64,000 nucleotides of DNA, taken from contig CAVOJZ010000002.1 in NCBI GenBank assembly GCA_963696395.1, positions 559,317 through 623,316 on the forward strand, read 5' to 3'. The stretch is from an uncultured bacterium (GTDB lineage Bacteria; Patescibacteriota; Minisyncoccia; UBA6257; 2-01-FULL-56-20). Both the position numbers and the translations under genes were made by a program. The stretch's first letter is position 1; each line of letters starts with the position of its first letter. The notes beneath the pieces were generated by a model. The model saw nothing but the letters and a program-made list of their open reading frames with translations. It ran no database searches and had not been told where the DNA came from. Of the stretch, positions 48,419 to 54,257 are shown piece after piece.

Positions 48419-48437
48419 GTATATTTCTGTCTGAAAG

Positions 48438-48508
48438 TCGGGCTGCTGGGAATCGAACCCAGTCTTTACGCACCCGAAGCGCACGTACTACCGGTATACT
48501 ACAGCCCG
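48438..48508 (-). tRNA. tRNA-Pro (CGG), no encoded CCA
   Basis: Reverse complement folds: acceptor cgggctg/cagcccg, anticodon loop ttCGGgt, T-arm ctggg-ttcgatt-cccag. Confidence 0.7.
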
Positions 48509-49559
48509 AAGTTGAGGAGGAGATGCGCAAGCAAGCTTGCGTATCTCCGACGAAACGAGGGATGAAAAGCTTCTTAGCTTTACAGCCCGAAGTTACCAAG
48601 GTATTTAAACCTTTTTTGGGGAAAAACTCAACTGCCCGGGAAGCTATTGACACTATTTTTCAGGTGAGTATACTTACTCCTAAGATACGAATGTTCAAGA
48701 ACGTAAATCTTTCACCAACCACCGGCTAGCCCCGCAATTTTAGATTGTGAAGCAGCCGCCGTGCGCGGCTGATTTTATTCTTGGGTATGTCGTGTCGAAC
48801 GTTTTTTACCAATATTCGTTCGACTACTTGAGCGAACTTCCGAATTGTAGAGTCGGAAGATTCATATGAAGCTCCGCGCCATCTTATGTCCGACTGTGCC
48901 TACAAGCACGGGCGGGCAGAGGCCTACGTAACGCATTTCTAGGCCTCCAATTTCTCTTGGCAGGCGGAGCATGTTCTTAAATAGAACAAAAAAGTCAGCA
49001 TTGGGATGGTTGGCACATAAGGGCGAATGGTGGATGCCTAGACTAGAAAAGGCGATGAAGGACGTGGCGTAGCAACGATATGCCTCGGGGAGGTGCGTAG
49101 CAACCTGTGATCCGGGGATTTCCGAATGGGGAAACCTAGTTGAGTAAACCTCAATTGCGTGGAGCAATCCACGAGCGTACCCGGCGAAGTAAAACATTTC
49201 AGTAGCCGGAGGAAAAAAGAACAAGCAGTTTATTCCCTGAGTATCGGCGAGAGAAAAGGGAAGAGCCCAGACTAAGGTTGTGATTTATCACAGCCTTGGA
49301 GTTATAAGTGTTGAACGCTCTCCTTCGCGAATAATAAAGGGCGCAGTAATGTGCTCTCTATTATTTGCGAGCGGAGGTGGAGGAGTTAAAAAATCATTGG
49401 TTAGCCGAAATCAGCTGGAAAGCTGATACCAGAGAGGGTGATAGTCCCCTAGGCGAAAACTTTTGGTCTCCTTAGTTTATCTACTTGAGTACTTCGAAGT
49501 AAAACAGTTTCGAAGGAATTAGCCAGTACTATCTGGCAAGGCTAAATACTTTTCTAGAT

Positions 49560-51020: not shown

Positions 51021-51766
51021 GAAATACGATTGTAGTTATAAAATTTGGCTATATGCTGGAATACCTGAGTATCCGACATTACCGTTGGTGCAAAAATAAA
51101 TTAAAAAATCATTAAAACTGATTTTGGAATTTACTTTTTGTTTGCTACGGTGAAAATATGATCGGTGCAGACAATCAGCAGGAAAGGCTTTGGTCGCAAA
51201 AATGGCTTAACGATATTCCAGAAAATATCGGTTGGTATCTTTCGGGCTTCGTAGACGGAGAAGGGAGCTTTAACGCTTCGCTTCGGAAGGGAAATGGGCA
51301 TCGCCTCGGATGGCAGGTGCAGTTAACTTTTAATGTAGCCCAGCGAGATATTACTGATTTGGAATTATTGAAGCGTCATTTTGCATGTGGACGATTACAA
51401 AATCGAAAGGACGGAGTTCGTTATTTCGTCGTTTGTGATTATCGTTCCATTATCAATCGGGTTATACCATTCTTTGAGAAATTTCCTTTCTATTCTGTTT
51501 CAAAACAGAAAAACTTCTTTCTTTTCAAACAAATCGCACTTCTGATGGGCCAGGGCAAACACCTTGATCCAGAAGGATTCCGCGAGATTGTTTCTATAAG
51601 AGAAAGATTAAACGAAGGGAAAGGACGAAGAAGAAAATATAACGAGAGCGATATGATTAAAGAATCCTCAGAGACTACACGCCAAACTTCGCGTATCGCG
51701 AAGATGATATAGTCCGAACTGCATGGCGACATGCAGAGTTGCTCTCTCACGAGCAGAATAACAGAT
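51021..51766 (+). mobile_element. group I intron 1a in 23S at the E. coli 1917-equivalent site, carrying a LAGLIDADG ORF
   Basis: 5' exon ends ...gataactaT; P7 R element cagagactacacg (about 51678) and S aagatgatatagtcc (about 51703); ends in G before exon aatcgttctaaggt. Confidence 0.6.
51158..51712 (+). CDS. single-motif LAGLIDADG homing endonuclease (intron-encoded)
   Basis: YLSGFVDGEGSF dodecapeptide near N-terminus, 184 aa, inside 23S intron. Confidence 0.75.
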   Translation: MIGADNQQERLWSQKWLNDIPENIGWYLSGFVDGEGSFNASLRKGNGHRLGWQVQLTFNVAQRDITDLELLKRHFACGRLQNRKDGVRYFVVCDYRSIINRVIPFFEKFPFYSVSKQKNFFLFKQIALLMGQGKHLDPEGFREIVSIRERLNEGKGRRRKYNESDMIKESSETTRQTSRIAKMI

Positions 51767-51780
51767 GAATCGTTCTAAGG

Positions 51781-52018
51781 TGGAATTGAAACTGCCTTAG
51801 TAAAACCTAACTATATGCTGGAACACCCGCGCATATCAGAGTACCGCAAGGTAACAATCTCTGATCGAAGCGGACAATCAGCAGGAAACTTCTTCGGAAG
51901 GATCCTCAGAGACTACACGTTAGGATCGCCGGGTGGCGATAAGATATAGTCCGAACTGCATAGCGATATGCAGAGCCAAGCAGAAATGTTTTGGCCAACA
52001 TAGGTTGTAACATGTTTG
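51781..52018 (+). mobile_element. group I intron 1b (ORF-less, ~238 nt) in 23S at the E. coli 1931-equivalent site
   Basis: Q caatcagcagg (about 51872), R cagagactacacg (about 51908), S aagatatagtcc (about 51938); joined exons give aactat-aatcgttctaaggt-agcgcaattcc, matching E. coli aactataacggtcctaaggtagcgaaattcc. Confidence 0.55.
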
Positions 52019-52716
52019 AGCGCAATTCCTTTTCGGGTAAGTTCCGAAGCGCACGAAAGGCGTAACGACCGGAGAACTGTCTCAGAGGCAAGCTCGGTGA
52101 AAATGCGATTCCCGTGAAGACGCGGGATACCTGCAGCGGGACGAAAAGACCCCGGAAGCTTTACTGCAGCTTGGTATTGATTTTAGAGTTCTACTACGTA
52201 GCGTAGTGGTGAGGATTTGAAGCACAGCTCTCGGGTTGTGTGGATCCGACAATGAAACAGCCATTTTTAGAACTTTAACGTCTAACCGGTTGGGGACCTT
52301 ACAAGGAAACCCAACTGAGACAGTGCTTGGTAGGCAGTTTAAATGGGGCGTTTTCCTCCAAAAGAGTAACGGAGGAGTTTATTAAGGTCAGCTTAGCCCG
52401 GATGGAAATCGGGCAGGACGTGCAAACGCAAAAGCTGGCTTGACTGCGAGACCTACAAGTCGAGCAGGTGCGAAAGCAGAAGTTAGTGACCCGACGGCTA
52501 TGTTCATGTAATTTATTATATGAATTCTTAATAGGAAGGCCGGAGACACCGGATAAAAGCTACTCCGGGGATAACAGGCTAGTATTGTCCGAGCGTCCCT
52601 AGCGACGACAATGCTCGGCACCTCGATGTCGGCTCGCCACAGCGCGGGGGTGGAGAAGCTCCCAAGCGTTTGGCTGTTCGCCAATTAAAGTGGCACGTGA
52701 GCTGGGTTCAGACCGT

Positions 52717-53425
52717 TGAATACAAGAACCCTTAACGACGAATCGAACACGGCGGCTATCTCGAGTAATCGAGATTGAAAAAATCGACTCATATCGGTGA
52801 AACCCTAGCGTTCATGACCTGTGAGCGTATCTAAATGTTTATTAAAAATAAATTAAAAACTATTTTGTATGAACAGGCGATCATAGGATAATACCGAGGG
52901 AAGTCGCATATGGAATTTTCGTCAACGCAAAAAGCATATCTTGCAGGTTTTCTTGATGGTGATGGCAGCATCTATGTACGATTGAAACCAAATAGCGATT
53001 ATCGTTATGGGTTTCAGGTCGCACCGTGTGTTGCATTTTTTCAATCATCAAAAGACCGCAAGAGCTTTGAAGAGATCTGCAATCTCATTGGTAACGGATA
53101 TCTGCGGGAAAGAAACGATGGCATGTTGGAGTATGTTATGCAGAAACAACAGGCGATCTACTCTTTTCTTTTGGACATACGGCCATTTCTTATTCTTAAG
53201 AAACGGCAAGCCGATTTGATGCTCGTGATTTTGGAAAAGAAAATGCTCGTAAAATCTAAAGAAGATTTTATAGCGTTGATGGAGTTAATCGATCAATTCC
53301 GAGAATTAAATTATTCGAAGAAACGAAAGATTCATATGTTGACCCTCTAGAGACTACACGTCGATCTCCTCGAAAGAGGATGGTGGTATAGTCCGGCACT
53401 CCTGGTAACAGGAGAATACAGTATG
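52717..53425 (+). mobile_element. group I intron 2 in 23S at the E. coli 2593-equivalent site (I-CreI site), carrying an I-CreI-like ORF
   Basis: Exon junction ttcagaccgT | ... G | cgtgagacaggtcgg reconstitutes ...accgtcgtgagacag (E. coli gaacgtcgtgagacag); P7 R/S elements agagactacacg / tatagtcc at about 53350/53390. Confidence 0.7.
52910..53350 (+). CDS. I-CreI-family LAGLIDADG homing endonuclease (intron-encoded)
   Basis: YLAGFLDGDGSIY motif; overall similarity to I-CreI (FLxxxxPFLxLKxxQAxLxLxIxE; DQxxxLNxSKxRK) at the homologous rDNA site. Confidence 0.8.
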   Translation: MEFSSTQKAYLAGFLDGDGSIYVRLKPNSDYRYGFQVAPCVAFFQSSKDRKSFEEICNLIGNGYLRERNDGMLEYVMQKQQAIYSFLLDIRPFLILKKRQADLMLVILEKKMLVKSKEDFIALMELIDQFRELNYSKKRKIHMLTL

Positions 53426-53913
53426 CGTGAGACAGGTCGGTCTCTATCTGCTGCAGGCGTTTATTACTTGAGGGGAGTTGGCCTTAGTAAGAAATTGCTA
53501 CTTTCTGGAGTAATCCAGATTGCCAACTCGGCTAATAACGGTGAAACCCTAATTCTTGCTTCATCGCGATTAATATTTCATTAAAAATTTATTAATCGTA
53601 GATTGAAATGCAGTCCTCTTTCCCTATCATTGAAATATGATACAAGAGCAGGGCAATACCGTGGGAAGTCGATCTAATAATTTTAGGTTTGACCCCGTAA
53701 CGACTTGTGTCCTCGGCTTTGCGCCGAGTGACCGGATAGCGGTCTTTGAATCGCTATAACATGCCGACGCCCGACTTCGCACACGCGAAAGGGCGAAGAT
53801 ATAGTCTGAGCACGTAGTAATACGTGAGTGCTTGACGAGAGGACTGGGCTGAACATACCTCTGGTCTATCGGCTTTGCCACCAGGTGAATTGCCGAGTAG
53901 CTATGTATGGAAG

Positions 53914-54136: not shown

Positions 54137-54257
54137 GATGTCGGTGTTTTATCCTTGTGTGTCCCACCTCTTCCCATTCCGAACAGAGAAGTGAAAGCAC
54201 AAGCATCCGATGATACTCATCGCTTCGGCTTTGGGGAAAGTAGGATATGCCGACATC
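54137..54257 (+). rRNA. rrf: 5S rRNA
   Basis: gtcccacctcttcccattccgaacagagaagtgaaag matches the 5S loop B/C consensus; ends gatgtcgg/ccgacatc pair; an extended flanking helix 54125-54268 is followed by a T-run. Confidence 0.8.

Follow-up and report, generated by a model that had tools for sequence, protein, structure and literature searches.

The DNA analysed here, hereafter the window, is a stretch of 64,000 nucleotides (nt) on contig CAVOJZ010000002.1 of an uncultured bacterium, and it contains on its forward strand a 23S rRNA gene that extends from position 49007 to about 54060 and is followed by a 5S gene (54139-54256). The subject of this work is an insertion in that 23S gene at 52717..53425, an apparent group I intron with an open reading frame (ORF) for a 146-amino-acid (aa) protein; all intron features described below lie on the forward strand. 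In a BLASTN comparison with E. coli rrlH, positions 1932-2593 of the E. coli gene correspond to 52019-52716 and positions 2594-2660 to 53426-53492, so that the collinear blocks are interrupted exactly between U2593 and C2594 (52716/53426), and this break defines an insertion of 709 nt. The 5′ exon reads ...GGGTTCAGACCGT up to 52716 and the 3′ exon begins with CGTGAGACAGGTCGG at 53426, the junctions being GCTGGGTTCAGACCGT followed by the intron start TGAATACAAG, and the intron end ACAGTATG followed by CGTGAGACAGGTCGG. The base in front of the insertion is a U and its last base is a G (53425). An earlier interpretation made from the DNA letters (the sequence-only reading) had proposed a group I intron that starts after U and ends in G at the equivalent of E. 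coli position 2593 (site L2593), and the alignment to rrlH together with the exon sequences places it there to the nucleotide.

Related loci were collected from a protein search with one genome per species (6 loci) and from a metagenome scan with the family alignment (80 loci), giving 86 in total. The insertion with its ORF occurs at the identical site in 6/6 of the genome loci and in essentially all of the 80 metagenome loci, and in essentially all 86 it is flanked by GCTGGGTTCARACCGT and CGTGAGACAGGTYGGTC. Because the same ORF-containing insertion recurs at the same rRNA position, its presence in the window is not a matter of chance.

The ORF (52910..53350) lies in loop L6 of the intron and encodes a member of the I-CreI/I-MsoI family of homing endonucleases with one copy of the LAGLIDADG motif (YLAGFLDGDGSIY). 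Pfam LAGLIDADG_1 matches it with 43.5 bits (cutoff 23.1). Solved I-CreI chains align with residues 9-141 (1bp7, E 3.9e-24), I-MsoI aligns with residues 5-135 at an E-value of about 1e-19, and I-CvuI is matched at 6.5e-16; identity to the I-CreI moiety, counted from the alignment, is about 36%. The alignment to I-CreI had been suggested by the sequence-only reading as a check on its I-CreI-like, single-motif protein of 146 aa, and the full-length homology, along with the Pfam match, bears that assignment out; both stretches which it had singled out, PFLxLKxxQAxL and DQxxxLNxSKxRK, are visible in the alignment. The catalytic residues D20, Q47, and K98 of I-CreI have their counterparts in D18, Q45, and K97, and an alignment of 27 family members shows little or no variation at these residues or in the C-terminal LNYSKKRK. 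The loop of I-CreI that corresponds to LNYSKKRK has been reported to be indispensable for DNA binding (PMC1904291).

More than 1200 homologous proteins were found, the 120 closest being at least 61% identical, and the ORF is intact in 68 of the 73 related introns for which both exon junctions were found. Compared with its closest relative (81% identical), the gene has a ratio of non-synonymous to synonymous substitution rates (dN/dS) of 0.06, with dS near saturation, and judged from these sequences it looks functional and under purifying selection. Gene and ribozyme overlap at the 3′ end of the ORF, where the last codons encode the 3′ strand of P6, the UAG stop codon lies in J6/7, and its final G is the first base of P7. 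At the other end, the conserved stretch GAGGGAAG, which belongs to P4′/P6, is situated 6-13 nt upstream of the ATG; it is Shine-Dalgarno-like and looks like the ribosome-binding site of the endonuclease ORF. A promoter for the endonuclease gene in an AT-rich element of the intron was considered and dropped, as no sigma-70-like promoter was called in 52650-53480; no intrinsic terminator was called in that interval either.

Around the ORF, the RNA can be drawn as a complete group I core. An internal guide sequence, CACG/GCGG (52748..52755), faces both exons: its GCGG part (52752-55) pairs with the last four nucleotides of the 5′ exon, CCGU (52713..52716), to form P1, in which U52716, the equivalent of U2593, is the partner in the U.G wobble at the 5′ splice site, and its CACG part (52748-51) pairs with the first four nucleotides of the 3′ exon from C2594 onward, CGUG (53426-29), to form P10. 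P2 follows as a hairpin, AUCUCGA-guaa-UCGAGAU (52758..52775, strands 52758-64 and 52769-75). The 5′ strand of P3, AUCGAC (52783..52788), pairs with GUCGAU (53360..53365). The P4-P5 domain (52794..52897) consists of P4, UCGGUG (52794-99) with UACCGA (52892-97), and P5, CCUA (52804-07) with UAGG (52884-87). In P6 the 5′ strand, GGG[AA]GUC (52898..52905), forms part of the GAGGGAAG stretch, and the 3′ strand, GACCCU (53341..53346), lies within the end of the ORF. The P7 strands are G[A]GACUA (53350..53356) and UAGUCC (53389..53394); the 3′ strand of P3 begins 3 nt (CAC) after the former, and the P8 hairpin UCCUC-gaaa-GAGGA (53367..53380, strands 53367-71 and 53376-80) lies between the P3 3′ strand and the P7 3′ strand. 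The P9 hairpin CUCCUG-guaa-CAGGAG (53399..53414, strands 53399-404 and 53409-14) and the terminal omega-G (53425) complete the intron. In P7, a bulged A beside a G-C pair has the sequence pattern of a guanosine-binding site, the Rfam consensus being AGACUA / UAUAGUC. The P7 R/S-like elements mentioned in the sequence-only reading can be recognised as AGAGACUA (53349-53356) and GGUAUAGUCC (53385-53394), which Rfam aligns with high posterior probability to the J6/7-P7 and J8/7-P7′ consensus.

Since the Rfam group I model RF00028 does not reach its threshold on the intact intron, the fold was established by comparative analysis. The ORF interiors of 53 diverse introns were removed, the sequences were aligned with MAFFT, and the structure drawn by hand for the window intron was projected onto the alignment; canonical pairs, controls with slid partners, and column shuffles were counted with our own script. 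Canonical pairing is complete in P1 (100%, 2 double-change cells), P4 (100%, 14), P6 (100%, 25), and P7 (100%, 0, this helix being invariant), and it is nearly so in P3 (96% versus 3-31% when slid, 67 double-change cells), P9 (96%, 63), P5 (95%, 2), and P8 (90%, 63), with P10 (82%, 16) and P2 (82% versus 26-42% when slid, 130) at the lower end. When the 3′ partner is slid by 1-2 columns, values over all helices fall to 0-69%. Over the 54 pairs, 94.1% of cells are canonical versus 82.7 ± 0.4% in column shuffles, and 0 of 500 shuffles reach the observed value, a result which is not a probability because the sequences are related; double changes occur in 31 of the 54 pairs, versus 21 on average and at most 26 in the shuffles. 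The guide sequence changes along with both exons. At the 5′ exon ACCGU occurs with GCGG, AACGU with GCGUU, and AUCGU with GCGA, and at the 3′ exon CGUG occurs with CACG, CGUA with UACG, and CGC with GCG. The P1-P10 pairing, its covariation, and the fit of the guide to both exons bear out the proposed group I intron. Minimum-energy folding of the ORF-deleted intron, unconstrained and constrained, recovered only P2, P8, and P9, and its result was not used.

Several observations weigh against the assignment as a functional intron of this class. A search with RF00028, which the sequence-only reading had named as a check, gives the intact intron only 20.6 bits, with E-values of 0.056 over 5.5 kb and of 0.0075 over 741 nt, and stays below the gathering score of 50. 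The shortfall is due to the 441-nt ORF in L6, which splits the halves of the core: the 3′ half (J6/7, P7, P3′, P8, P7′, P9) lies on the group I consensus with high posterior probability, and the model's 5′ half is made to fit ORF sequence, the true one being situated 440 nt upstream. For these reasons we do not take the sub-threshold score as a negative result. The window intron also has no P7.1/P7.2 hairpins, which are present in 53 of 63 relatives. In those 53 introns the span from P7 to P7′ is 63-104 nt, apart from two with about 500 nt, versus 29-37 nt in 10 of the 63, among them the window copy with 29 nt. The two long ones (L049 and L054) reach spans of 502-534 nt through an additional insertion of about 450 nt between P7 and P7′. 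By this trait the window copy falls outside the P7.1/P7.2-bearing, subgroup IA-type L2593 introns; it is a deletion variant homologous to them. Its P5 region measures 91 nt between the P4 strands versus about 36-55 nt in most relatives, roughly twice the usual length, owing to an AT-rich hairpin (52838..52876), and the loss of P7.1/P7.2 or this unusual insertion could affect folding. On the side of the protein, the counterpart of I-CreI R51 is D49, with R50 adjacent to it.

The host can be judged from a neighbouring gene: the closest named relatives of its product, LigA, belong to Candidatus Paceibacterota and Minisyncoccia, and on account of these labels we assign the window to a Parcubacteria-type bacterium of the Candidate Phyla Radiation (CPR), in agreement with the CPR-type host suggested earlier. 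Both LigA and the exact endonuclease protein are on record on a contig of 913,682 bp. The closest relative of both intron and endonuclease (L002, CAZADL010000028.1, 81% identity) is labelled Candidatus Saccharibacteria. A host from that group was dropped for the window in view of the LigA relatives. Saccharibacteria are reported to be nearly devoid of rRNA introns (PMC11270868), and the label of this closest locus represents either a rare exception or a mislabelled bin.

Taken together, we consider it about 93% probable that a mobile group I intron occupies 52717..53425, following the U2593 equivalent in the 23S gene of a Parcubacteria-type CPR bacterium. As its anatomy suggests, the transcribed intron would fold into a P1-P10 core with a P3/P7 pseudoknot, and the contiguous guide CACG/GCGG would line up the 3′ exon through P10 and the 5′ exon through P1, whose U.G wobble lies at the splice site. 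An external guanosine held at P7 would attack the 5′ splice site, the terminal G53425 would then take its place, and after two transesterifications the exons would be ligated. The exon ends ...GACCGU and CGUGAGAC... would thereby be brought together, and helix 93 in the peptidyl-transferase centre would be restored. By homology with I-CreI, the encoded protein is predicted to act as a homodimer and to cut the pseudo-palindromic site TCAGACCGT^CGTGAGACAGGTCGG in 23S alleles that lack the intron, and repair from the intron-containing copy would spread the intron (homing).

It is conceivable, if unlikely, that the ribozyme is intact and the endonuclease is inactive or serves mainly as a splicing maturase, homing having been lost and the intron being inherited only vertically. 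At these sites a cycle of gain, degeneration, and loss with fragmented endonuclease genes has been described (PMC11270868), and an intact ORF is missing from 5 of the 73 related introns with both junctions. Furthermore, the loss of P7.1/P7.2 might make splicing of the window copy protein-assisted, and the R51 counterpart differs. Against a decayed enzyme, however, the ORF is full length, conservation extends to the counterparts of D20, Q47, and K98 and to the DNA-binding C-terminal loop, and dN/dS is 0.06; as for a maturase, we know of no such activity in I-CreI-family proteins.

A mobile, self-splicing intron also has to be set against an insertion that is never spliced and is either retained as an expansion segment or excised by RNase III without ligation, as an intervening sequence that leaves the 23S rRNA fragmented. 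Such intervening sequences exist in bacterial 23S genes, and CPR rRNA genes contain many short non-intron insertions (PMC11270868), but the window element shows all the hallmarks of group I, backed by covariation, among them the pairing of its guide to both exons, and it interrupts helix 93 in the peptidyl-transferase centre, where the retention of 709 nt or a nick would hardly be tolerated. Besides, a passage in PMC11270868 that cites Brown et al. reports CPR insertions of the same type to be absent from transcripts, and we regard an unspliced insertion as very improbable. Even less credible, to the point of being nearly negligible, is an assembly artefact in which an intron-bearing fragment of another organism was joined chimerically into the rRNA gene. 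Metagenomic rRNA operons are difficult to assemble, yet the same arrangement is found in 86 independent loci, some of them on contigs of 500-900 kb, and an identical endonuclease protein is on record on a contig of 913,682 bp. In the window, the exon flanks run without a break into a complete 23S gene, whose CPR-type exon ACCGU fits the guide sequence of the window intron itself.

The AT-rich hairpin in the P5 region contains ATTAAAAATAAATTAA at 52841-52856. With at most one mismatch, the motif ATTAAAAATNNATTAA occurs three times in the 64 kb versus 0.04 expected, and the sites (51100-51115, 52841-52856, and 53580-53595) are distributed one per intron over the L1917, L2593, and L2656 introns of the 23S gene. 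Introns 1 and 3 have an exact 16-mer in common, versus 0.08 expected. Within the 86 related L2593 loci, the motif is confined to the closest relative (L002). One might think of the hairpin as a lineage-specific module that moved between co-resident introns and that, combined with the loss of P7.1/P7.2, gave rise to a remodelled, possibly protein-assisted L2593 ribozyme; we find this idea worth stating but doubtful. Such a module could be a tiny mobile insertion or a gene-conversion tract, or else a site, common to the introns, at which one splicing or endonuclease cofactor docks.

The other introns of the gene lie on both sides of the L2593 element. After the equivalent of E. coli U1917, an L1917 group I intron of 747 nt (51021-51767) contains an ORF for 184 aa (51158-51712) with a single LAGLIDADG motif (Pfam 70.3 bits), whose best solved relatives are of the I-SmaMI/I-OnuI type (E about 1e-37) and not I-CreI; its 3′ part matches RF00028 with 36.1 bits (51583-51736). 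A mini-exon of only 14 nt, AATCGTTCTAAGGT (51768-51781), which corresponds to E. coli 1918-1931 and to the 3′ strand of helix 69, separates it from an L1931 group I intron of 237 nt (51782-52018) without ORF (RF00028 67.8 bits over 51750-51973). The fourth group I intron, 346 nt long and also without ORF (53489-53834), is situated in the sarcin-ricin loop after the equivalent of E. coli U2656, its junctions being TTAGT / ... G / ACGAGAGG (RF00028 37.6 bits, E 4.6e-7). It corresponds to the CPR site termed 2657, which is said to be unreported in other bacteria (PMC11270868). Closely spaced introns also occur in a related locus from a Yanofskybacteria genome (L007), in which another group I-like intron (about 1200-1350) ends 9 nt upstream of the L2593 intron; the mini-exon TCAAACCGT, equivalent to E. 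coli 2585-2593, places this upstream intron at about L2584.

Rfam alignment and sequence further indicate that, compared with the bacterial consensus, the 23S gene has two short insertions of non-intron type, one of about 80 nt near model position 312 (window 49330-49430) and the other an AT-rich stretch near 52510 (52505-52535); both are probably short rRNA insertions of the kind common in CPR bacteria. Upstream of the 23S gene, a tRNA-Pro gene on the opposite strand (48437-48508) and an ORF for 1008 aa are found in place of a 16S gene, so that the rRNA operon appears to be unlinked, no 16S gene preceding the 23S start at 49007.

The importance of the element beyond correct annotation is small. 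The 23S gene is split by four group I introns and requires in silico splicing before it is used for rRNA phylogeny or ribosome modelling, and for the 146-aa ORF the correct annotation is that of a homing endonuclease. As natural relatives of I-CreI, the CPR L2593 enzymes are predicted to recognise a target four positions off the I-CreI site, and the more than 1200 relatives offer studies of meganuclease specificity a ready set of naturally occurring variants. In addition, as the ten compact introns without P7.1/P7.2 demonstrate, natural introns can do without this peripheral domain.

The insertion point of the window intron is the same as that of the Cr.LSU intron with I-CreI in the chloroplast 23S gene of Chlamydomonas reinhardtii and of the introns encoding I-MsoI and I-CvuI. 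The window protein resembles I-CreI in its full-length homology, its counterparts of the catalytic residues, and its C-terminal SK-RK loop, and it differs in its length (146 versus 163 aa) and in its host, a bacterium instead of a chloroplast. Differences are also found at residues that contact DNA in the I-CreI structure, where Q26 is replaced by R, S32 by D, and Q44 by A. Of the 24 bases of its predicted target, TCAGACCGTCGTGAGACAGGTCGG, 20 agree with the natural I-CreI site, TCAAAACGTCGTGAGACAGTTTGG (PMC1904291), and the four differences (A>G, A>C, T>G, and T>C) are explained by compensatory changes in helix 93 (GACC/GGUC for AAAC/GUUU).

From three cyanobacteria, namely Synechococcus sp. 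C9, S. lividus C1, and Thermosynechococcus elongatus, Haugen et al. (2007; PMC1995217) described L2593 introns that are about 745 nt long and contain a single-motif LAGLIDADG gene. The window intron is similar to them in residing in a bacterial 23S gene, in its size, in its single-motif LAGLIDADG gene, and in its short P2. In Synechococcus sp. C9, L1917, L1931, and L2593 all carry introns (PMC1995217), a trio of sites that is occupied in the window as well. The cyanobacterial L2593 intron possesses P7.1/P7.2 and a short P5 (PMC1995217); like it, most CPR relatives combine the extension of about 65 nt with a short P5, whereas the window intron has neither and its P5 is enlarged.

The closest match among described systems is site 2593 of CPR bacteria themselves. 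In their analysis of 348 CPR 23S genes, Tsurumaki et al. (2024, J Bacteriol; PMC11270868) found insertions in 82%, with LAGLIDADG_1 proteins predominantly in insertions at 1917, 1931, 1952, 2593, 2604, and 2657; the encoded proteins consist of one domain, and the flanks of the insertions are group-I-like. One such enzyme, I-ShaI from site 1931, cuts its own insertion site and forms homodimers (PMC11270868). With site 2593, which is one of 23IS12-14 in that study, the window element shares host group, rRNA position, single-domain Pfam family, and group-I-like flanks; insertions at 1917, 1931, and 2657 co-occur with it, and in the window all four sites are occupied. While that study characterised I-ShaI and not the 2593 family, and reported no helix-by-helix covariation for the 2593 intron, there is no difference in kind, the window copy being a compact variant without P7.1/P7.2 and with an AT-rich insertion in P5. 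The novelty that the sequence-only reading had implied for such an intron in a CPR-type rRNA is therefore not upheld, given the cyanobacterial introns known since 2007 (PMC1995217) and the frequent use of this site in CPR bacteria (PMC11270868). An L2593 group I intron with an I-CreI-type endonuclease is already known and ordinary in CPR bacteria, and in the light of both studies the window intron is a further member of a described class.

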